From Clostridium sp. 28_12 (GTDB lineage: Bacteria > Bacillota > Clostridia > TANB77 > CAG-508): a stretch of 59,827 nt of DNA. Numbering within the stretch: position 1 is the first letter of the stretch; every line of letters starts with the position of its first letter. The notes under the pieces are model-generated. The model made no database searches. It saw only the letters and a list, made by a program, of their open reading frames with translations, and had not been told where the DNA came from. Positions 6,567 to 31,186 of this stretch are shown here, one piece after another. Location of the stretch: contig MNRR01000035.1 in NCBI GenBank assembly GCA_001916055.1, positions 17,302 through 77,128 on the forward strand, in the 5' to 3' direction. The translations under genes were made by a program, and so were the position numbers.

Positions 6567-7616
6567 TTATTTTATGTCTTTGAAGTTTTGATTTTTCTTG
6601 TAAATTACAATTGCTGATATGATTGCTGCTGCTATTACTACAAAAAATGTAATGCTTAAACCTGCTTTTGGTAAATCTGTATTTGCTACTGTTGCATCTT
6701 TTTTGTCTCCATTTACGTTATCATTTTTTACTTCGTCTTGTTTATTCTTGTCATCTTCAATTACTAATTCATCCTTTTTTTGGCCATCATCTTTGTTAAC
6801 ATTATTGTTATCATTATTGCTATCATCTTTATTGTCTTTATTATCACCTGCTGTTTCATCCTTTTTCTCTATTGTTATTTTTAGAGTTGCTGTTTTATTT
6901 CCATCTTCTGTTGTAGCTGTTATTGTTGCTTCTCCTTCTTTTATTCCTTTTACTTGTCCATTGCTGTCTATGGTAGCTACTTTATCATCACTTGATGACC
7001 ATGTTACTTTTTTATTTGTTGCAGTTGTTGGTTCAACTACTGCTTGAAGGATTGTTGTTTCTCCAACTTTTAGTGTTGTTTTCGTTGCCTCTATTTTTAC
7101 GTTTGTTACTGCAACTGTTGGTGGTGGAGTTACTGTCTTGGCTATATTGAAACTTATAGGGTTTGTTGAAGCTTCTGCAGCTCCTTCTGCTTTATCCATA
7201 TCACCGTCTGATGCCATTAATTCAGTAAATTTAACATCTCCTGTTCCGCTAGCATTCTCTTTTACTTTTAATACTAATTTTGCGTATACTTCTCCTTCTT
7301 TTCCAACCTTTGTCACATTAAACTTTTCTCCTGATTGACCTCCTGTTGAAAATGTAGTACTTACAAATTCAAAAAAGTCTGTATTATATTCAACCTTTCC
7401 TTCGATTGCTGCAATAGAATCATCTTTTGCATTTTTTAAATCTTTTATTGTAAATGTAAATTCAACTTCATCACCTTCTACTACTGAAGTTTTATTTGCT
7501 GTAATTTCAATTGTAGCCTCTAATTTGACTAATGTGACTGCCTTTGCAAAAACTGTTCCCATCATAAATACTGTCATTAATAAGACTGTAACAATACTAA
7601 ATAATAATTTTTTCAT
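6567..7616 (-). CDS. cell-wall anchored surface protein: signal peptide, cohesin-like domain, Big_2 domain, D/K/N-rich linker, LPKAG sorting signal
   Basis: Cohesin-like segment: VKLEATIEITANKTSVVEGDEVEFTFTIKDL...IEGKVEYNTDFFEFVS. Big_2 segment: VTWSSSDDKVATIDSNGQVKGIKEGEATITATTEDG. C-terminus: LPKAG, hydrophobic helix, then KKNQNFKDIK. Confidence 0.7.
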   Translation of the reverse strand: MKKLLFSIVTVLLMTVFMMGTVFAKAVTLVKLEATIEITANKTSVVEGDEVEFTFTIKDLKNAKDDSIAAIEGKVEYNTDFFEFVSTTFSTGGQSGEKFNVTKVGKEGEVYAKLVLKVKENASGTGDVKFTELMASDGDMDKAEGAAEASTNPISFNIAKTVTPPPTVAVTNVKIEATKTTLKVGETTILQAVVEPTTATNKKVTWSSSDDKVATIDSNGQVKGIKEGEATITATTEDGNKTATLKITIEKKDETAGDNKDNKDDSNNDNNNVNKDDGQKKDELVIEDDKNKQDEVKNDNVNGDKKDATVANTDLPKAGLSITFFVVIAAAIISAIVIYKKNQNFKDIK

Positions 7617-7647
7617 TTTTTTATTTTCCTTTCTCTTGTATATTTTT

Positions 7648-10600
7648 TTATTTTAACTGTAGTCTTGCTATAGCTGCCAATTCAACTAAATCTAACTTTC
7701 CATTCATATTGATGTCTATTGCTGATTTTTCTAAATCTGTTGATGTAGACTGCTCTGCAAATATCTTAGATATTCTTGCTAATTCGGTAAGTGATATCTT
7801 TCCGTTTCCAGTCAAGTCTCCCCAAACAATTACAGTATAGACTTTATCGTTTTTCATCTTTACTTGGCAACCTGTTCCTATGTATGAACTATCTGAAAGC
7901 TCTGTCCCACTTTTATTTAAGATTGTATATTCCATTTCTGAATTTATACTCTTTTTAAAGTTTAAAACTGTTGTTTTTGGATAAACCTTTTTTATATTAA
8001 GGTCTGTTTCAGAAATTTTTAATGTATTTGATGTTAATACATCAGATATTCTTTTAATCTGAACTTTAACATTTATTGTCGTAACATTTCCTGCTTCATC
8101 TTCCAGTTTTACATCTTCTGTTGTATCTTGTGAATAAACCTTGGTTAAAGTCATTGAGCCATTTGTAAGTTGTTGTGAAGTCCATCCTTCAACATCTGCG
8201 ACTTTTTCATTTACTGTTATTGTAACTTCAACTTGTTCGTTTTTCTGAACTTGAGACACTTGTGCCACTGGTGCTTTTTTATCAATATTTTGAACAATTG
8301 CTGTTGCAGAACCTTCAACTCTGTATTGGTCAACATATGTAAATGTAAATTCTCCATTTTGCTCAAATGTGTATGTATCTTTTCCGTCATTGTTTGTAAT
8401 TTTTATTTCTCTTCTACTTTGATTAAATGATATTCTAGCAATAACATTTTGATTTGTTTTTTCAGTGTTTGATGGCTCATATGTAATTATAGCATTTAAT
8501 GGTGCTGATATAGTTAACACTGTTCCTTTTGCTTTTCCACTAACTATTTCTACTTGAGCAACCTCTCCATTTAGCTTATCTGCGTCTACAATAACATTTT
8601 GTCCTGTTGAATCTAATTCACAATTTGTTAATGATAATTCATTGCTTGAATATATCTTATTTCCACTTTGTTGTGATGCCAAAAATATTTGTGGTAACAC
8701 TATATTAACTTTTCCTGATGATGATTTATCTAATAGTCTTACAATCTTTTGTCCATTAACTGAAAGATTTTGCTCATTAGACATTGAAATTCTTGAAAGT
8801 ACTGATACGTCTTCAATTTGATTGTTGTCCATCTTCAGATTATTTATTGTACGATGTGAAGACAATGCAGATATATTTTTTATGTTATTTCCTGTAAATT
8901 CCAACTCGTAGAATGTTTTGCCTTTCAATGGTTCTAAACTTTCAATCTTATTATTATTAAAATAGAAATATTTTAATAACTTTAAATTTGAAACAATATC
9001 TATATTTTTAATTTGATTTCCGTTTATGTTTAATGTTGTTAAATTGGTTAATACATTTAATTTAGATGTCTTATTATCATCCAAATTAGTATTTGATAAT
9101 CCTAGACTTTGTAATGTTGTTATTTTTTCAATACCTTCTATATTATTTAATTTTGGATTATCTGATATATCTAAAACAACCAATTCACAATATCCTGTTT
9201 CATATAATTCATTTAAGAAATCAATATTAGTTAAGCCTGTATTAGATAAATTTAATGTTTCTAAATTTCTTAAATTTACAATTGATTTATTGTTATTATT
9301 AATATTAGAGTTACTAGCTAAATTTAATATCCTTAAACTTTCACATGCATAAAATTGTTCAATTGTGCTTACATCATTATTTTGCAAATATAATGTTTGC
9401 AAGTTTCCAAAGTTCTCCAATCCTGTTAAATCTTTTATCTTTGTATCACTTGAAGAATCTGTATGTTGTAAATTTAATTCATCGATTGAAGAAATTGCAT
9501 CCCTATCAACATTGATTATCAATGGAACAGTTATGTGATATTTTAAGTTTCGTTCTGCTACCTTCGCTGTCACTACTCCTTCTATTTTCGAATACAATTG
9601 TGAATCTTTAAAGTATACAGATTCAATATAACAATTAGTGTCCCCATATTCTCCTATTTTAAAATGCAATGTACTACCATCTGTAATTCCGCCTCTTATT
9701 GTTACAGTCAAATCATCTTCCCTAGTTTTTTCATGATTAACGATTACATTATATTCCTCTGGTTCAGTATAATCTGTATTTTTTCTAACTCCATCAGAAT
9801 ATTCAAACTCTGTACCTGAAAAATATGCAAATTTACTTGAATCCATACTATATCTAAATATTGTTGGCATTATGATATAATGATCAATATCTATGCTTTT
9901 ATCATATAAACCAAATGTAATATTTTCATTTTCTAGAAATAATTCTTTTCCATTATTATTGCTACTAGAAAATCCGTATTTACTTAATGGTTCTATGTCA
10001 TAAATTGAATTATTTGATAAATCTAACCAATATAAATCTCCAGGATATTCACTAAATACACTAATATCTACAATTTTATTTCCATTCAAGTCGATTTTTC
10101 CTGCTCTTAATGAATTTTCCACATCAATTTCGTTTCCGTTTTTATTAACTAAATATTCGATATCAGAAATATTATTATCTTTTAAATCAAGTACATCTAA
10201 TCCCGTTAAATCAGCTACTCCATATATACTATTTATTTCATTTGATGCTAAGTGCAATTCTTTTAGAGATTTTAATTCTTTAAAAGAATAAAAGCTTATA
10301 TTGGGTCTATTTCCTAATGTTCCTATACTGCTTAAATTCAAAAATTTCAAATTACTTAAATATGGTATATTCTCATATCCATTATCTGTATATTCTGAAT
10401 GTGTTTCAAATATTGCATCTATTCCACTAGAACTTACAATTCCTTTATTGTCTGAGGCATATAATTTTTCTAATTTTGATAATCTTCCAATTCCTGTTCC
10501 TTCTTCTGATCCTGAAAAGGTTGTAATTCCTGTCCCTGAAACATTTAATTCAGTAAGATTTGTAAAAGAAACTAGTTGTAAAAAATCTGTAAAACTTGTA

Positions 10601-11202
10601 TTAACAGAAATGTCTAATTTAGTAATTCCATTTAAATTACTAATCTTTTCTATTGCACTAATATTATTACCTGCTAATATAAGTGTTTTTAAATTTGTAA
10701 GAGTCTTTAAATATTCTAATTGGTCTGAATTCATTTTTGTATTTGTCATATCTAATTGAGTCAAACTTGACAAATTAGATATCGCAGATAATAAATTAGT
10801 ATTTATTTGATTTTCTGCTACATTTAATGAAGTGATTTTGCTTAATTGATCCAAAGAATCTGCAGATGTTACCGAATTTTTAGATAAATTCAATGTTGAT
10901 ATATCCTGAAAATTCTCTAATCCTGATAAATCTGCAATTGCTGATGATGATAAATCTAATTCTGTAATTTTCGAAATGTCATTTTTTGAAATTTCAATAG
11001 TTTTTTCTACATCATTTGCATTATAATTTAGTTTTTTGGCACTCAATTGTTTTTTCATAGAATCATATAAATTAGAATCTTTGAAAGTAATGCTAGTAGG
11101 GTTAACGATGTTGTTTGTACCATAAATTACTACTGAAAAACTAACTAAGATAATAATAGCTATTGCTATAAAAAATACTTTTTTTCCTTTTGTTTTTCTC
11201 AT
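7648..11202 (-). CDS. large secreted leucine-rich-repeat (internalin-like) protein with Ig-like region and C-terminal type I dockerin
   Basis: Two blocks of about 22-aa LRRs (LxxLxLxxNxIxDIxxL). C-terminus GDLTGNGKISLTELARISKI...IDINMNGKLDLVELAAIARL matches the duplicated dockerin Ca-binding repeat. Confidence 0.8.
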   Translation of the reverse strand: MRKTKGKKVFFIAIAIIILVSFSVVIYGTNNIVNPTSITFKDSNLYDSMKKQLSAKKLNYNANDVEKTIEISKNDISKITELDLSSSAIADLSGLENFQDISTLNLSKNSVTSADSLDQLSKITSLNVAENQINTNLLSAISNLSSLTQLDMTNTKMNSDQLEYLKTLTNLKTLILAGNNISAIEKISNLNGITKLDISVNTSFTDFLQLVSFTNLTELNVSGTGITTFSGSEEGTGIGRLSKLEKLYASDNKGIVSSSGIDAIFETHSEYTDNGYENIPYLSNLKFLNLSSIGTLGNRPNISFYSFKELKSLKELHLASNEINSIYGVADLTGLDVLDLKDNNISDIEYLVNKNGNEIDVENSLRAGKIDLNGNKIVDISVFSEYPGDLYWLDLSNNSIYDIEPLSKYGFSSSNNNGKELFLENENITFGLYDKSIDIDHYIIMPTIFRYSMDSSKFAYFSGTEFEYSDGVRKNTDYTEPEEYNVIVNHEKTREDDLTVTIRGGITDGSTLHFKIGEYGDTNCYIESVYFKDSQLYSKIEGVVTAKVAERNLKYHITVPLIINVDRDAISSIDELNLQHTDSSSDTKIKDLTGLENFGNLQTLYLQNNDVSTIEQFYACESLRILNLASNSNINNNNKSIVNLRNLETLNLSNTGLTNIDFLNELYETGYCELVVLDISDNPKLNNIEGIEKITTLQSLGLSNTNLDDNKTSKLNVLTNLTTLNINGNQIKNIDIVSNLKLLKYFYFNNNKIESLEPLKGKTFYELEFTGNNIKNISALSSHRTINNLKMDNNQIEDVSVLSRISMSNEQNLSVNGQKIVRLLDKSSSGKVNIVLPQIFLASQQSGNKIYSSNELSLTNCELDSTGQNVIVDADKLNGEVAQVEIVSGKAKGTVLTISAPLNAIITYEPSNTEKTNQNVIARISFNQSRREIKITNNDGKDTYTFEQNGEFTFTYVDQYRVEGSATAIVQNIDKKAPVAQVSQVQKNEQVEVTITVNEKVADVEGWTSQQLTNGSMTLTKVYSQDTTEDVKLEDEAGNVTTINVKVQIKRISDVLTSNTLKISETDLNIKKVYPKTTVLNFKKSINSEMEYTILNKSGTELSDSSYIGTGCQVKMKNDKVYTVIVWGDLTGNGKISLTELARISKIFAEQSTSTDLEKSAIDINMNGKLDLVELAAIARLQLK

Positions 11203-11346: not shown

Positions 11347-12393
11347 TTCGCTTATCATTCTATCTGCAAAAACAGCATAACCAAGTGTTGGATCTTTTAC
11401 AAATACATGGGTTATAGCGCCAATAAATTTGCCGTTTTGAATAATTGGTGAACCACTCATTCCTTGGACTATTCCTCCTGTTTTATTTATTAGATTTTCA
11501 TCTTTAATTTTTATAACCATACTTTTATTGTCATAATTATTATTCAAATATATTCTTTGTATTTCTACACTATATTCTTTAAGTTTTCCATCAATGTTTG
11601 ATAATATTATTGCATCTCCTAAATTTATTTCTTGCCTTGGAGCAACATATATTTTTTTGTTATAATCAATGTTTATATTATCTGGATTTTTTATAACTCC
11701 ATACACGCCATAGGCTGTATTTTTGTATATATTTCCTATTACACTATTTTGATTTATTGCCCCTTGAATTTTTCCTGGTTCTTCTTCTTTTCCTTTGATA
11801 ACAGATACAATGCTAACATTATCTATTTCTCCTGATGATGTTTGTAAAATTTCGCCTGTGTCTATATCTGTTATTGCATGTCCTAATGCTGCAAATGTTT
11901 TTAATTGTTCGCAGTAAAATGTTAATGTCCCTACACCTGCTGCACTGTCTCTTACCCATAAGCCAATTTTGTATTTTCCTTGTTTATCTTTAACTGGTTT
12001 TATTGTACAATTCTTTTCGTCATTTTCTCTTTGATATTTAATATTTACAGATTCACCTTCATATAAATTTATTGCATCTATTAATTCTTCTGTATTATTT
12101 ACTATAATATCATTTACTGAGATTATAGAATCTCCTTCTTGAATGCCTGTATTTTCATACGGTTTGTACTTTTGACCATCTATTCCTTCTATTTCAGAAG
12201 TCCCAACAACTAAAACTCCACTTGTATATAGCTTTATTCCTATAACTTCTCCTACTGGTATAACCTGAATGTCTGATATTTTTATTTCTTCACCTTTTAC
12301 TGCAATCGTTTCAGGATAATAACCTCTTGTAAGTACAAACATATATAAAAAAATTAATACAAATAAAATAAATATTTTTTTGAGTGTTTTCAT
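11335..12393 (-). CDS. spoIVB: SpoIVB peptidase (S55), stage IV sporulation signalling protease
   Basis: N-terminal TM, PDZ-like region, and catalytic-domain motif GGIVQGMSGSPIIQNGKFIGAITHVF. Confidence 0.9.
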   Translation of the reverse strand: MKTLKKIFILFVLIFLYMFVLTRGYYPETIAVKGEEIKISDIQVIPVGEVIGIKLYTSGVLVVGTSEIEGIDGQKYKPYENTGIQEGDSIISVNDIIVNNTEELIDAINLYEGESVNIKYQRENDEKNCTIKPVKDKQGKYKIGLWVRDSAAGVGTLTFYCEQLKTFAALGHAITDIDTGEILQTSSGEIDNVSIVSVIKGKEEEPGKIQGAINQNSVIGNIYKNTAYGVYGVIKNPDNINIDYNKKIYVAPRQEINLGDAIILSNIDGKLKEYSVEIQRIYLNNNYDNKSMVIKIKDENLINKTGGIVQGMSGSPIIQNGKFIGAITHVFVKDPTLGYAVFADRMISELHT

Positions 12394-12529
12394 TTTATTT
12401 TCACTCCTTTAAATTTATTATTAGTACTAATTTCTTTTTTATTCAAATTCTTTTTTGTAAGTTATGGCGTTATAAAAAAGCACAAAAAACAACTATTTTC
12501 AAAATTTTTCAAAATTTAAAATAGTCGTT

Positions 12530-13090
12530 TTATGTTGTTCCTGTTGCTCCATTTATTGATACAGTCCCTGATGATGCAGCTGATATGATACTTGAGTCAT
12601 CTCCTGCTATATTATAATATATATTTCTTAAAGCTTGTGATAATGTTCTACTATTATTTCTTACTGTAACTGATATTTGGTCTCCCTGCTTTAATATGAT
12701 TTTTCCAACCCTATTATTATTAGAACTTTTAGCTGAGTTTCGAATTTTTTCTTCAACTTGGCTTGTATATAATGAATAATATGTGTTATTTCCTATCTTT
12801 TGAGGATCATTATCAGTTATCATTTTTGATGGAGTTGCATCTAATATTTTGACTTCAATATCTACATCATAAGTATTACCAGCTGAAAACAATGTTGATG
12901 TAAATTCTTGATAAGTATCTGATGCTATTTGACCTGATTTTATCACTTCATTTACAAATTCTGAAGTAGCAGTTTGTGCTACTAATTGTGAAACATCATC
13001 TGCTCTATCTGCTAGTAAAAATAATGGAACTATAAACATTAATATTGAACCGATTAGTATTCCTACTACGTCCATTGCTGTATCTTCCAT
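12530..13090 (-). CDS. pilin/pseudopilin-like protein 5 of the Tad-like operon (divergent N-terminus MEDTAMDVVGILIGSILMFIVPL)
   Basis: 186 aa, AGGAG RBS, N-terminal hydrophobic helix followed by a soluble domain. Last gene of the operon. Confidence 0.5.
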   Translation of the reverse strand: MEDTAMDVVGILIGSILMFIVPLFLLADRADDVSQLVAQTATSEFVNEVIKSGQIASDTYQEFTSTLFSAGNTYDVDIEVKILDATPSKMITDNDPQKIGNNTYYSLYTSQVEEKIRNSAKSSNNNRVGKIILKQGDQISVTVRNNSRTLSQALRNIYYNIAGDDSSIISAASSGTVSINGATGTT

Positions 13091-13102
13091 ATTGTTACTC
13101 CT

Positions 13103-13774
13103 TTATTTCATTTGATATGTTATTACTCTTTTCTTTATTTTTGTTGAATCACTTCCTTGGTAATATTCACCTAAGTTTTCAACAAAAGTCTTATCTTTTA
13201 AATAGTCATAAAGCCCATTTGGATAAACAGATTCCATAAGTTGATTTCCATATTTTGTATCACTTAGCATATCTAGCATTTGAGTATCTCCTGAATATTG
13301 TCTTTTCCAGTTATTTTTTCCTGCTAAAATCATACTTAAATGATCAGCAGCGACTTGTTTTGCTGATTTACCTTTGTCATTACCTATTTGTTCTTTTTCA
13401 AGATTTATATAGTTTATGGTTACAGCTCTTGTTGAACTATTATCAACAGTATTTCCTTCTGAATCTACTCTTTTTCCATATTGATTAGTTTTATAATACA
13501 ATGGTAATGGATTTCCATTTTTGTCTTTAAAATAAATTTCCGTATTTTCTTCATATGCTTGATACATTGCTGGTATTATTGATTCTATACCAACTGTTCT
13601 TGTAAAATCACTTGCAGGTTTTACATATCGATATTCTCTTTCTCTAGAATACATACTTGCTATATTTAATGCAGAAGAATTTGCGCTAGACAAACAAGAT
13701 ATACTTAAGGATAGCGCCAATATGAACATTAATACTGCTCCTGCAATTTTTAAAGCTTCTACCGCGTTTTCCAT
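13103..13774 (-). CDS. pilin-like protein 4 (N-terminus MENAVEALKIAGAVLMFILALSL)
   Basis: 223 aa, AAGGAG RBS. Shares the MENxxxAL plus hydrophobic helix N-terminus with its neighbours. Confidence 0.55.
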   Translation of the reverse strand: MENAVEALKIAGAVLMFILALSLSISCLSSANSSALNIASMYSREREYRYVKPASDFTRTVGIESIIPAMYQAYEENTEIYFKDKNGNPLPLYYKTNQYGKRVDSEGNTVDNSSTRAVTINYINLEKEQIGNDKGKSAKQVAADHLSMILAGKNNWKRQYSGDTQMLDMLSDTKYGNQLMESVYPNGLYDYLKDKTFVENLGEYYQGSDSTKIKKRVITYQMK

Positions 13775-13797
13775 AAGTATATCTCCTTTCTCATTTA

Positions 13798-14211
13798 TTA
13801 GTTACTTGTTTTAATAACTTTAATTGTTTTTACAAGTCCACCTGGACCATCATAATTTACTTGTATTGTGTATAATGCACTTGTATCAGCTTGGCTTTTG
13901 ATACTTGTTGCATTTCCTGCTAAAGTAACAGCTCCTGAAACAGCTACTTGTCTACCAGTCTCACCAGCAGCAGCAGCATCTACATTTGCATTTAATACTG
14001 TATTTAGCATTGCATTAACTTCTGAACCTCTTTTATTAGTTCCATTATATCTAGCAAATTTTTCATTTGCAGCTTGAACTTCTTGTTGTGATAAGTTAGC
14101 TTGGTTAACTGTTTCAGCAGATGAATTGTAAACAACTAATCCTAAAGATATAATTAAGATAGCTATTAAAACTGCTGCAGCAATTAACAATGCTTTTGTT
14201 GCGTTCTCCAT
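13798..14211 (-). CDS. pilin-like protein 3, candidate major subunit (N-terminus MENATKALLIAAAVLIAILIISL)
   Basis: 137 aa, the smallest paralog. Strong GGGGGGAG RBS and preceded by the longest intergenic gap (71 nt) in the operon. Confidence 0.55.
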   Translation of the reverse strand: MENATKALLIAAAVLIAILIISLGLVVYNSSAETVNQANLSQQEVQAANEKFARYNGTNKRGSEVNAMLNTVLNANVDAAAAGETGRQVAVSGAVTLAGNATSIKSQADTSALYTIQVNYDGPGGLVKTIKVIKTSN

Positions 14212-14282
14212 AGTTTCTCCCCCCTTTTTGTTAACTTTTGTTTATTTTAATCTCGACAATATGTATTGCATGCCGAACTTTA

Positions 14283-14717
14283 TTAACTATTTTTCTCTTG
14301 TTCGAAAAGCATATATTTTATTTTACCATTTTTATGGTATTCTACTTTTGAACACTTAAAGTTGATATTCGCATAGTATTGAACAAATTGTTCTGTACCA
14401 GCATTATAAAATGATTCCATTTTATATGTTGTTTCATTATCTGTCATATATACTTCTATTTCGATAGAAGTATTGTCATTTGCTATGAAATTTCCTTGAT
14501 CATCTTTTTCAACTTTGTTTTTTGTATTTCTATCTATTGCCTTATTTATTAATGAAGCCACATCAATACCATTTACATCTTGGTCTTTGTATTTATCAAA
14601 TTCAAGATTTTCTTTTTGAATCTGATTTTGCTCATTTTTATAAGAAATAAATTTGTATCCAACTAGCGCTACAATAATAACTACAAGAGCTAAAAATATA
14701 AATATTTTTTTCATCAT
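14283..14717 (-). CDS. small N-terminally membrane-anchored protein of the Tad-like operon
   Basis: 144 aa, MMKKIFIFLALVVIIVALVGYKF followed by a soluble domain. Lacks the MEN motif. Confidence 0.5.
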   Translation of the reverse strand: MMKKIFIFLALVVIIVALVGYKFISYKNEQNQIQKENLEFDKYKDQDVNGIDVASLINKAIDRNTKNKVEKDDQGNFIANDNTSIEIEVYMTDNETTYKMESFYNAGTEQFVQYYANINFKCSKVEYHKNGKIKYMLFEQEKNS

Positions 14718-14762
14718 TTAACCTCATTATATCATTTGATTTTTTATTTTGCAACATTTTTT

Positions 14763-15230
14763 TTAATGTATTTCTGTAAAATTTATGCTGTAAACTTGAC
14801 CAGTAGAATCTCCTATTAAAACATCACTTGCTTTACAAGAAAACTTTGTATCTTTATTTCTTTCAAGTAAGCTTACCATGTTTTCATTAATTGTTTGGTC
14901 AATACGTCTTCCATTTAAAAGAACTTGAACATATAAAGTACTAGGTCCTGCTTTCCACTGACTTGTATCAGGATTTTTGTTGTAATTATTTTCGTATGCA
15001 CTACTAGCTGCAGAAATAACGTCTTGAATTGTTAACACTTTTCCATCATTAGAATTTACATAGTTAAGATACTCTGTGTTAAAACTATCAACTTGTGTAT
15101 ATTGTATTTGTTTATTTGTATCTTCTACATAGCTTTGTAAACTTGAATATAAAACAGCGGCTAGTGATAAAACCATTACTGCCATCAATACCCCAGCAGC
15201 TATATATAACGCTTTAACTGCATTTTCCAT
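14763..15230 (-). CDS. pilin-like protein 2 (N-terminus MENAVKALYIAAGVLMAVMVLSL)
   Basis: 155 aa, AAAGGA RBS, shared N-terminal motif. Confidence 0.55.
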   Translation of the reverse strand: MENAVKALYIAAGVLMAVMVLSLAAVLYSSLQSYVEDTNKQIQYTQVDSFNTEYLNYVNSNDGKVLTIQDVISAASSAYENNYNKNPDTSQWKAGPSTLYVQVLLNGRRIDQTINENMVSLLERNKDTKFSCKASDVLIGDSTGQVYSINFTEIH

Positions 15231-15247
15231 ATATGTTTTCCTTTCGT

Positions 15248-16060
15248 TTAATCAAATTTTGCCTTTCCATTTTCTTCTACAATTACAAATGTCATTCCAA
15301 TAACTCTTCCATTTTGGGAAGTGTTATGTTGTACTCCTGTACATTTAAACATTGCTCTTTTAAATTGTGTATATTGATAATATCTTTTTGTTATATTTAC
15401 CAATGTATTCATCTGTGAAACAGATAAATCATTTGCCTTTTTCTTTCCTAAAATATTTTGTAATTTTTCAGTTCTAGTCGTTTTCAAACTTTCTTTCTCT
15501 TGTGTAGATATTCTATTAGACGATAATTGTGAGTCAATTGCAATATTTTGAATATCTGCAGACAATGCTTGTAATTGAGCATCAGATATATTTGATATTC
15601 CAGCACTAGCTAACTCATTAATTAGGTCTGCTGAAATATTTGCTACATCTCGAATGTTTACATCACTCGTAGCAGTATTTTTTAAAATATTGGCTGACAT
15701 TTTTCCTTGAAAGATGCTGGTATCAGAATCACTATATTTAAAGTTGTCATTAGCTCTATTCTGATACCCTTTTAGATCAATAGATAATATTACTTTATCA
15801 TACTTTTCCATATCTGCTATTGAAGTATTATAATTTACAACTTTATTCATAATAGAAATTATTTCATTTCCTCTTATTGTTTGTCCATTATAATTTTCAA
15901 ATTGTGCATTAAATTTTGCATCTTGTTCTATAATTTTTGAATTATGCTGTTCTGCATAATAACCAGATAATTGTCCACCAAACATTGCCAATAGGGATAG
16001 TATCAATACTGCAAATAATATTCCTGCTGCAATAAGTAATGCTTTTGTTACATTTTCCAT
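15248..16060 (-). CDS. pilin-like protein 1 (N-terminus MENVTKALLIAAGILFAVLILSL)
   Basis: 270 aa, GGAGG RBS, shared N-terminal motif. Also shares the post-helix motif FNAQFENYNGQTIRGNEIISIMNKV. Confidence 0.55.
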   Translation of the reverse strand: MENVTKALLIAAGILFAVLILSLLAMFGGQLSGYYAEQHNSKIIEQDAKFNAQFENYNGQTIRGNEIISIMNKVVNYNTSIADMEKYDKVILSIDLKGYQNRANDNFKYSDSDTSIFQGKMSANILKNTATSDVNIRDVANISADLINELASAGISNISDAQLQALSADIQNIAIDSQLSSNRISTQEKESLKTTRTEKLQNILGKKKANDLSVSQMNTLVNITKRYYQYTQFKRAMFKCTGVQHNTSQNGRVIGMTFVIVEENGKAKFD

Positions 16061-30123: not shown

Positions 30124-30705
30124 TCACTTAATTTTACCATTTATAAATTTTTTGTTGTTTTTTAAGTTTAATATTATTTTTAAAATTATTATATAAAAAA
30201 CACATCCTATTATTGCACCCGCAGTATCTATCAAAACATCTGTAAATCGGCTTGTTCTGCCTATTACGAACAGTTGGTGAAATTCATCTGTACATGCATA
30301 TATAAATGATATTATTATTGCAATTATTATTGATTTTGACTTTTTTATATTATATTTTTGCATACAATTCAATATTAAAATACTTAATATGCAATATTCA
30401 CTAGCATGCATACATTTTCGTAATGGCGTATTTAATTTTTCTACAAGTCGTTCTTTTGGTGCCTCTTCATTGTTTTTAGGCTTTTCTGCAACATCTTTAT
30501 TAGGTTCTGTTGTTGTCTTCTCCTCTGACTCCACACTTTCTTTTGAGTCTAAATTTTTTATTGTATTTACAGTTTCTTTTATTGCTTCTTTACTTTTTTG
30601 ATTCGATTCTTCCCCTGACATTGCAGAAAAAGTAAATATTACTGCCATCCAAATTATTATTGATATTATATTTATAACTTTTTTCATTTTTTTACTTATT
30701 TCCAT
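30124..30705 (-). CDS. VanZ family membrane protein
   Basis: DEFHQLFVIGRTSRFTDVLIDTAGAIIG VanZ motif with 4 TM helices. Confidence 0.8.
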   Translation of the reverse strand: MEISKKMKKVINIISIIIWMAVIFTFSAMSGEESNQKSKEAIKETVNTIKNLDSKESVESEEKTTTEPNKDVAEKPKNNEEAPKERLVEKLNTPLRKCMHASEYCILSILILNCMQKYNIKKSKSIIIAIIISFIYACTDEFHQLFVIGRTSRFTDVLIDTAGAIIGCVFYIIILKIILNLKNNKKFINGKIK

Positions 30706-31186
30706 CTACATTCTCTATATTTATTTCCCATATATAGCCATATTCATTATAAGAAAATCTTACATTATATTTTTGATAAATTGATATACAATCTGCTATC
30801 TGGTATATGTTGCTAGGATATCTTACACCATAACTTCTTGAACCATTTAGCCCTGCTTTCATCTGCCCATCATTTGCAAATTCTTTTAAAATGCTATCTA
30901 CATTTGTACGTATACATACACAACTTTTTATTGTATCTTGACTTTTATATAATTCTTGATTGTTATCAGCAGCAAGTTTTAACAAACGTTTTACTTCTCC
31001 GCCACTTCTAATTCCACTATATAATTCATATTGTTTATTACGTGTCATTGCTTCCATATCAGCTATTGTTGATTCTGCATTTTCGCTCTCACTTGATTGT
31101 GAATATATATACTCTCCTAATGAAATTACTAATAGTGCAAAAAGAACACTTGCAGCTATGATTAAAGCTTTATTAGTATTTCCCAT
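30692..31186 (-). CDS. orphan sixth member of the MxNxxKAL pilin-like family
   Basis: MGNTNKALIIAASVLFALLVISL, followed by the shared post-helix motif YELYSGIRSGGEVKRLLKL. GAGGGGGA RBS. Overlaps the VanZ gene by 14 nt. Confidence 0.55.
   Translation of the reverse strand: MGNTNKALIIAASVLFALLVISLGEYIYSQSSESENAESTIADMEAMTRNKQYELYSGIRSGGEVKRLLKLAADNNQELYKSQDTIKSCVCIRTNVDSILKEFANDGQMKAGLNGSRSYGVRYPSNIYQIADCISIYQKYNVRFSYNEYGYIWEINIENVDGNK

Follow-up and report, generated by a model that had tools for sequence, protein, structure and literature searches.

Cleavage of a leader peptide by an A24-family peptidase is, to our knowledge, treated as a universal and defining step of type IV filament biogenesis, and we know of no type IV pilin that lacks a cleavable leader. 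Known class III leaders vary in length and sequence and keep a Gly (rarely Ala or Ser) at position -1, and the detection tools PilFind, FlaFind and TXSScan rely on leader cleavage. In classical pilins Glu5 has a neutralising role, and type IV filament systems normally have soluble secretion ATPases. In monoderm bacteria, Tad/Flp (type IVc) pili are exemplified by the Tad system of Bifidobacterium breve. Here we analyse a stretch of 59,827 nucleotides from Clostridium sp. 28_12 (contig MNRR01000035.1, positions 17,302 to 77,128; hereafter the window), which is about 28% G+C, Clostridia-like, and encodes SpoIVB, a sortase and a CpsB-type exopolysaccharide (EPS) locus. It carries an 11-gene operon on the minus strand, the last six genes of which are the open reading frames (ORFs) at 12530–16060. 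Four of these encode proteins that begin with the same Met-Glu-Asn head and are called MEN proteins below. With a probability of about 0.6, we propose that the MEN proteins are filament subunits, pilin- or pseudopilin-like, of a divergent Tad-type machine encoded by their own operon.

An original prediction, made from the letters of the window, had listed the six ORFs and had pointed to a shared N-terminus. On re-reading, the minus strand, the coordinates, the lengths and the quoted N-termini were all exact. Each of the six ATGs lies 6–9 nt downstream of a GGAGG-like site. As a comparison set we used 80 related loci, the best 80 of at least 554 species-level genomes of uncultured Clostridia in which the ATPase of the operon was found; these 80 are all gut, rumen or caecal metagenome-assembled genomes (MAGs). 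There, a Shine-Dalgarno tetramer precedes 276 of the 283 MEN-type starts, with a spacing peak at 6–8 nt, and an in-frame stop codon is present within 15 codons upstream in 261 of the 283. The ribosome-binding sites and the upstream stops fix the Met-Glu-Asn start, and the polar head is therefore not longer than 7 residues. Over 308 ORFs of the 80 loci, M1 and E2 are conserved at 100%, N3 at 93%, A7 at 94% and L8 at 92%, a conservation of the N-terminus that is far above chance; K6 is found in 69%, with D or E instead in the orthologues of the 223-aa (amino acid) protein. The 117 representatives of 50%-identity clusters, which are 32–56% identical to the 137-aa protein of the window, show no variation at M1, E2, N3, K6, A7 and L8, and 149 of the 150 best representatives start with MEN or MED at residue 1 (148 MEN, 1 MED) with a constant head length. 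The MEN head is 7 residues long, net neutral and invariant.

To define the family, one alignment per paralogue was built from the 80 loci and the paralogues were compared by hhalign. The ectodomains of the 270-, 155-, 144- and 137-aa families, taken with the first 30 residues or the transmembrane helix removed, are related to each other (E from 1e-8 to 1e-16), the homology in the 270-aa protein lying at the start of its ectodomain. The 155- and 137-aa families match over their full length (E=5e-32) and without the transmembrane helix (E=5e-13). A post-helix motif to which the original prediction had drawn attention is real and marks this homologous ectodomain. The 144-aa protein, which starts with MMKK and has no MEN head, is a true paralogue via its ectodomain, and the 223-aa protein has only residues 1–32/45 in common with the other MEN families (E from 1e-10 to 1e-12). 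The prediction had also grouped five proteins into one family, with the protein starting with MEDT as its divergent fifth member. The 270-, 155-, 137- and 223-aa proteins do share an N-terminal module, and the membership changes around them: the 144-aa protein and an orphan located elsewhere in the window come in, and the 186-aa MEDT protein goes out. The latter has no relation to the MEN families that hhalign could detect (E>0.002) and is a separately conserved component of the operon, homologous to 169–184-aa proteins at the equivalent place in plasmid operons (E down to 1.5e-15). The orphan, a 164-aa protein, matches the 137-aa protein by BLASTP (E=3e-10 over 105 aa). It has Gly for Glu at position 2 and keeps the post-helix motif (YELYSGIRSGGEVKRLL); its gene is located 15 kb away from the operon in a capsule/EPS locus with flippases and glycosyltransferases, where a VanZ gene and an FrhB-like gene flank it. 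The 137-aa gene is sometimes duplicated in relatives. The lineage of the window has expanded the pilin gene to 4–5 MEN paralogues, with the operon in the core chromosome.

The genes ahead of the MEN genes were compared with known secretion machines. The only PDB sequence matches of the 641-aa ATPase are to CpaF, over residues 274–540 (about 270 aligned); the E-value is 4e-8 when the single sequence is searched and 1.8e-8 with the profile. The ATPase also matches Pfam T2SSE (E=8e-4) and, at E=2e-9, the NCBIfam TadA-family TIGR03819; these matches are short of the curated cut-offs, far short in the case of TIGR03819. The ATPase is a divergent relative rather than an equivalog. It has a transmembrane helix predicted at residues 6–24 and a conserved extra ~250 aa ahead of the CpaF-homologous part. 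The 689-aa protein that follows has no Pfam match (none to T2SSF at E≤1) and no PDB sequence match even with a profile. It was compared by hhalign with TadB and TadC from Rhizobium, Streptomyces and Ruminococcus albus plasmid Tad loci and with the two platform-position proteins of the Clostridium botulinum plasmid pCB111. In the 689-aa family, residues 122–327 (E=5.6e-5) and 518–675 (E=1e-3) match the T2SSF region of TadB/TadC in collinear order; the N-terminal half likewise matches the first pCB111 platform protein (E=1.4e-6) and the C-terminal half the second (E=2.8e-6), again collinearly. An internal duplication was looked for in the 689-aa protein and none was detectable. In the related locus L014 the platform is split into two ORFs of 427 aa (12046–13329) and 251 aa (13340–14095). 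Either a natural fission or a frameshift in the assembly could account for this split, which bears on the reading of the 689-aa protein as a fused TadB–TadC.

Regarding the accessory proteins, the SAF protein matches Pfam SAF exactly at the cut-off (E=5e-4, 21.0 bits), which is weak evidence, and the first gene product of the R. albus Tad locus by hhalign (E=5e-5). The protein at the TadZ position of the Streptomyces Tad locus is matched by the 288-aa protein (E=4e-5), whose family is in turn matched by the 236-aa protein (E=2e-5). Of the components that define Tad systems, the operon has a CpaF/TadA ATPase and, on weak evidence throughout, CpaB/SAF and TadZ/ParA accessory proteins. Its subunit genes are linked, as those of type IV pilins are, to a T2SSE-family ATPase and a T2SSF-family platform, the latter on profile–profile evidence. 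No ORF for an Flp-like pilin (G/xxxxEY, the slash marking the cleavage site) or for TadE/TadF pseudopilins was found at the locus, and the MEN families showed no relation to the Flp/TadE proteins of the four loci compared by hhalign. Apart from the weak SAF and ATPase matches at or under the cut-off, no protein of the operon has a Pfam or NCBIfam assignment. From these comparisons we conclude that the operon encodes a Tad-type type IV filament machine, strongly diverged and with a putatively fused platform; the link through the ATPase is solid, and those through the platform and the accessory proteins are moderate.

Three observations support the role of the MEN proteins as subunits of this machine. 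The MEN genes directly follow the genes for the CpaF-like ATPase and the TadB/TadC-like platform, which is the position of the pilin genes in monoderm Tad operons. Conservation is distributed very unevenly along the proteins: in the 117 representatives, residues 1–8 reach 4.19 of 4.32 bits, residues 9–28 reach 3.35 bits and the ectodomain 1.3–2.3 bits, with 1.32 bits in a hypervariable loop (82–112). Identity across the 80 loci is 74–93% for the ATPase, 56–77% for the platform and 33–41% for the MEN proteins, whose N-terminal 28 aa are 54–68% identical versus 32–37% for the remainder. Such a combination of a conserved polymerisation helix with an exposed domain that diversifies is characteristic of major pilins, and the 137-aa protein appears to behave like a major pilin or shaft-type subunit. 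Finally, a hydrophobic segment of ~20 residues (8–28) lies within a long helix, as in the alpha-1 helix of pilins. The AlphaFold2 (AF2) model of the 137-aa protein, with a predicted local distance difference test score (pLDDT) of 88, consists of a helix at residues 2–38, a second at 42–53, a strand at 57–61, a third helix at 62–81 and then three strands. The pilin-like reading of the original prediction thus finds support in the genomic context, in the conservation pattern and in the modelled helix with its small alpha/beta domain, and none in homology to pilins or in a fold match. The structure prediction that had been proposed as a check gave a long N-terminal helix followed by an alpha/beta domain, and Foldseek found no match to a pilin.

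The same data bear on a reading in which the MEN proteins are not polymerised and remain in the membrane as anchored bitopic proteins (N-in, C-out). They would then be either an envelope-spanning part of the assembly or binding or scaffold proteins of the wall zone serviced by the ATPase and the platform, in the manner of an archaeal bindosome or of VirB8-like components. This would agree with the lack of pilin homology, with the ordinary signal-anchor of the 144-aa paralogue, with the resemblance of the head, in the wider family, to a generic short cytoplasmic tail ending in K, and with the weak NTF2/cystatin-like Foldseek matches of the ectodomain model, NTF2/cystatin-like being the fold class of VirB8/TcpC. 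However, an ordinary anchor is not expected to stay invariant across 25 residues when the ectodomain has diverged to ~33% identity, and the truly anchor-like neighbours (the 144- and 186-aa proteins) have the opposite pattern, the N-terminus of the 144-aa protein being 37% identical versus 46% for the remainder. Moreover, several paralogues with one helix, together with a short member of the abundant type that has a hypervariable loop, are a signature of pilins and pseudopilins, and the locus is chromosomal and syntenic and has no VirB4, VirD4 or relaxase. We consider the anchored reading rather unlikely in either of its forms. A second alternative, that the MEN proteins are ordinary Sec-exported proteins, from which signal peptidase I would cut a long type I signal peptide at about residues 31–33, can point to an n-region, a hydrophobic region and small residues at about position 31 (Ala in 80 of the 117 representatives). 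But signal peptides are not near-invariant, this n-region has no net positive charge beyond Lys6, a Tyr or Phe at -3 relative to Ala31 (98 of 117) breaks the -3,-1 rule and the AF2 helix is continuous through the putative cleavage site. We regard Sec export with cleavage as very improbable. Three further candidates were rejected: a component of a conjugative type IV secretion system, on the missing VirB4, VirD4 and relaxase and on the chromosomal synteny of the locus; lipoproteins, as there is no Cys; and sortase substrates, as there is no C-terminal sorting signal.

The original prediction had suggested that the K-A/L junction could be an archaeal class III site and had offered unprocessed subunits as the alternative. 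In its present form the cleavage reading keeps the same machine and the same filament subunits, and takes the 7-residue head as a class III-type signal peptide that is cut between Ala7 and Leu8 by an unlinked A24-family or novel peptidase. Weak sub-threshold matches to the archaeal UpsA pilin and to Pilin_N speak for it, as does the K-A-L of the 270-, 155- and 137-aa proteins, which fits the loose [KR][GA][hydrophobic] pattern of archaea. In addition, some type IV filament loci, such as that of MSH, have no peptidase of their own and borrow one, and the Tad systems are of archaeal, Epd-like descent (Denise et al. 2019, PMC6668835). However, the head is fixed in length and is the most conserved segment of the protein, the opposite of known leaders. 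The residue at -2 (position 6) is D or E in the 223-aa family, and the Ala at the would-be -1 position of the MEN proteins is K or S in plasmid homologues, whose heads (MSTNASKA/L, MESPVVKA/I, MDSPVVKK/I(F) and MRNVTS/M(I)) conserve no small residue at -1. The MEN head does not have the form of class III leaders, which are short, usually basic, variable in length and end in Gly at -1. Nor is there a Glu at +5: the Glu is at position 2 of the precursor, and a cut at A7/L8 would leave no acidic residue in the helix. The pCB111 subunits have leaders of variable length that end in an invariant KGG/LS (MKILNNKRGG/LS, MLKKFKNSLKNKKGG/LS and MYMKILKNKKGG/LS). The R. albus Tad operon carries an A24 peptidase gene; neither the 59.8-kb window nor the 80 loci (~1.7 Mb) nor the plasmid operons yielded an A24-like gene in searches of low sensitivity, made with a GxGD[..][KR] regular expression and, by phmmer, with the A24 protein of R. 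albus. The class III site as originally proposed is thus not borne out, and cleavage of the head by a peptidase encoded elsewhere is in our view unlikely.

Because its length is fixed and no Gly or Ala is conserved at -1, the head is probably not removed. Methionine aminopeptidase does not remove Met before Glu, so Met1 should be retained given the Glu at position 2. Of the two branches offered by the original prediction, that of unprocessed subunits is the better supported one, with the reservation that Glu2 is not universal. That the MEN proteins are filament subunits of this machine and also keep their head is possible, at slightly less than even odds. More tentatively still, with the odds somewhat against it, the system might represent a class of type IV filaments without a prepilin peptidase, the first of its kind, in which leaderless subunits keep Met1-Glu2 and assemble directly.

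In the mechanism that we propose, the subunits would insert N-in/C-out into the membrane, from which the platform and the ATPase would extract them, polymerisation taking place via the N-terminal helices. The 137-aa protein would form the shaft, the 270-, 155- and 223-aa proteins would serve as minor, priming or tip subunits, and the 144-aa MKK paralogue and the 186-aa protein would stay anchored in the membrane. With the head M-E-N-A-S/T-K-A kept, the subunits would need no prepilin peptidase and would be mature as made, the translation start replacing proteolytic maturation. Spaced by one helical turn (i, i+4), Glu2 and Lys6 could cancel each other's charge or neutralise the N-terminus, so that a Glu2–Lys6 pair might stand in place of the Phe1/Glu5 chemistry.

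A number of results weigh against this proposal. No filament of this system has been observed so far. No pilin profile reached threshold in Pfam and NCBIfam scans of the operon proteins or in a Pfam scan of the 117 representatives, the profiles considered being N_methyl, Flp_Fap, TadE, Pilin_N, Class_IIIsignal, ComGC and others; the scans of the operon proteins gave sub-threshold matches only, to DUF7186, UpsA (E=0.006), Pilin_N (E=0.14) and T2SSE. A search of PDB sequences with a profile of the 137-aa family returned nothing, and hhalign found no match between the MEN families and the Flp/TadE proteins of four loci (Rhizobium, Streptomyces, R. albus and pCB111). Foldseek retrieved no pilin from the PDB with the 137-aa model, the best matches being NTF2/cystatin-like and insignificant (E>0.7). 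Judged by their order, the secondary-structure elements are compatible with a lollipop fold, in which an antiparallel beta-sheet packs against the C-terminal half of alpha-1, and the confidence of the model dips at residues 31–40. The AF2 model of the 689-aa protein was poor (pLDDT 58, with a shallow alignment) and its Foldseek output meaningless, which is why profile–profile comparison was used instead; the platform assignment comes from that comparison alone, with pairwise hhalign probabilities of 22–90%. As for the peptidase, the single R. albus query recovered only itself among 72,556 plasmids, a measure of how insensitive the A24 searches were, and a prepilin peptidase elsewhere in the genome is possible. 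Lastly, neither the Thermobacillus homologue (MSTNASKAL) nor the orphan paralogue (MGNTNKAL) has Glu2, which is therefore no strict or universal counterpart of Glu5.

The Pfam scan of the 117 representatives returned only transmembrane-type noise, and weak matches to DUF515, an uncharacterised archaeal family, in 14 of them (best E=6e-5). The match inspected in one of them (P0174) covers residues 6–73; these matches may be noise driven by the transmembrane helix or a faint archaeal link, and we did not build upon them. Literature searches on DUF7186, DUF515, DUF5704 and 'leaderless' type IV pilins found nothing relevant.

Should the proposal hold, a Tad-derived machine without a cleavable leader would show that the peptidase step is dispensable, and the absent leader would explain why annotation overlooks the system. 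The major subunit evolves fast and is probably exposed at the surface, which makes it a candidate adhesion, aggregation or phage-receptor structure in poorly known gut bacteria. The system is large, widespread in gut Clostridia and essentially unannotated. For the 137-aa protein, 1085 homologues were collected at 90% clustering and 3940 50%-identity clusters (E≤1e-3), none of them named and none with a Pfam domain. Gene order is conserved in the related loci, and in those inspected the chromosomal flanks are a HAD hydrolase gene upstream and spoIVB downstream.

The system is also found outside chromosomes. Full-length homologues of the ATPase (37–57% identity) and an equivalent operon are present on 34 plasmid records, which are megaplasmids of Thermobacillus, Cohnella, Paenibacillus, Alkalihalophilus, Sporosarcina, Cytobacillus, Lysinibacillus and Clostridium argentinense/botulinum. 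In the plasmid annotations the ATPase is called TadA or CpaF, the first protein a SAF domain-containing protein, the 288-aa homologue on pTHECO01 ParA, and nearly all else is 'hypothetical'. The literature on the plasmid operons mentions the ATPase only, as a 'pilus assembly ATPase' (PMC4363355), and pBsph-like plasmids are reported to be conjugative (PMC13239906). Orthologous operons were inspected on pTHECO01, pRSJ17_1, pBsph, pBpOF4-01, pPPM1a and pST0210E1 (L081, L082, L083, L088, L089 and L090). In five of these six plasmids a protein with an SLH, stalk or cell-wall-binding domain is encoded after the operon, and in the four Bacillales plasmids among them a giant DUF5704 protein of ~1000 aa or more is encoded there; both might be cargo or partners of the machine. 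The presence of orthologous operons in the cultured strains Lysinibacillus sphaericus C3-41, Paenibacillus polymyxa M1 and Alkalihalophilus pseudofirmus OF4 makes the question experimentally accessible.

The features of the locus are collected in Table 1. The hairpin that adjoins the last gene has a folding energy of -15.5 kcal/mol (z=-4.65), and none of 200 shuffled sequences folded as well. The 62 nt that separate the SAF gene from the gene after it contain, at 21729–21758, an inverted repeat with a 13-bp stem (CTTTTAGCAAGAG GATT CTCTTGCTAAAAG), which might serve as an internal attenuator, a terminator or an operator. In six of the seven MAG loci for which gene maps were read, an extra gene encoding a protein of 534–749 aa (MKLQxLxVIF...) follows the 186-aa gene (L010, 17609–19423; L014, 17784–19397; L021, 18271–20001; L043, 18516–20765; L061, 17454–19058). 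Its product has no Pfam match and is related to 321–342-aa proteins of the plasmid operons. The extra gene is missing in the window and in its closest relative L001, where spoIVB comes directly after the 186-aa gene. Downstream of spoIVB in the window (6567–11202, minus strand) are encoded a 1184-aa leucine-rich-repeat protein with a dockerin/EF-hand-like C-terminal segment and a 349-aa Big_2 protein, both candidate surface adhesins adjoining the pilus-like operon.

Table 1. Operon genes, probable terminator and orphan paralogue, with positions in the window.
Feature	Positions	Strand	Remarks
SAF protein, 445 aa	21761..23098	-	first gene of the operon; N-terminal transmembrane helix at 16–34; CpaB/RcpC-like SAF domain
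ParA/MinD-like protein, degenerate, 236 aa; second TadZ-like protein	20988..21698	-	weak AAA_31 match (E=7e-4); position kept in all loci
ParA/TadZ-like protein, 288 aa	20102..20968	-	NCBIfam eps_fam/tyrosine-autokinase P-loop (E=3e-5)
CpaF/TadA-like secretion ATPase, 641 aa	18172..20097	-	CpaF match; N-terminal membrane anchor and extra ~250 aa
Polytopic membrane protein, 689 aa, ~8 transmembrane helices	16074..18143	-	putative fused TadB–TadC-type platform by hhalign
MEN-type subunit MENVTKALL..., 270 aa	15248..16060	-	putative minor pilin-like protein; long C-terminal extension
MEN-type subunit MENAVKALY..., 155 aa	14763..15230	-	full-length homology to the 137-aa family
Paralogue, 144 aa	14283..14717	-	MMKK and a transmembrane signal-anchor replace the MEN head; ectodomain homology
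MEN-type protein, 137 aa	13798..14211	-	candidate major subunit; shortest; own intergenic region; strong ribosome-binding site
MEN-type subunit MENAVEALK..., 223 aa	13103..13774	-	acidic residue at position 6
MEDT... protein, 186 aa	12530..13090	-	N-terminally anchored operon component; outside the MEN family
Hairpin and U-tract	12481..12532	-	probable intrinsic terminator of the operon; adjoins the last gene; RNA fold
Orphan family member, 164 aa, MGNTNKALIIAAS...	30692..31186	-	within the exopolysaccharide locus

Monoderm Tad/Flp systems, such as those of R. albus pRUMAL01 and of a Streptomyces plasmid, are among the described systems that come close to the operon, with a matching gene order. 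Like them, the operon has a CpaF/TadA ATPase, a TadB/TadC-related platform, a SAF/CpaB-like first gene and a ParA/TadZ-like protein, has its pilin genes right after the platform and has no secretin. It differs in its ATPase, which is membrane-anchored and ~200 aa longer, and in its platform, in which TadB and TadC would be joined in a single protein of 689 aa, missed by Pfam T2SSF. It also has two TadZ-like genes, no Flp/TadE-type pilin and no A24 peptidase, and its subunits have globular ectodomains and the fixed MEN head. The locus of C. botulinum pCB111 encodes an ATPase that is 24% identical to that of the window over 60% of the query, and there too several small proteins with a hydrophobic N-terminus follow the platform. 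It has, in contrast, two platform genes, a short ATPase without a transmembrane helix and classical prepilin leaders ending in K-G-G/L-S. In this compact Tad-like locus (L084, 12274–14452), annotated as a SAF protein, an ATPase and hypotheticals, five of the 'hypothetical' proteins are clear prepilins, and Pfam T2SSF misses its two platform proteins as well. With the archaeal class III pilins (Epd-like, Ups and Aap), the MEN proteins share a short polar head, the lack of a Glu at +5 and, in three of them, a [KR][GA] that precedes the hydrophobic helix; the archaeal leaders, however, vary in length and sequence and are cut by PibD, EppA or FlaK, whereas the MEN head is invariant and has no linked peptidase. 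Also close are the megaplasmid operons of Thermobacillus composti (pTHECO01), L. sphaericus (pBsph), P. polymyxa (pPPM1a), A. pseudofirmus (pBpOF4-01) and C. argentinense (pRSJ17_1). They are plasmid-borne, have only one or two pilin-like genes and encode heads of the types MSTNASKAL, MESPVVKA and MDSPVVKK; these operons are orthologous to that of the window, have the same gene order and encode homologous pilin-like and 186-aa-like proteins.

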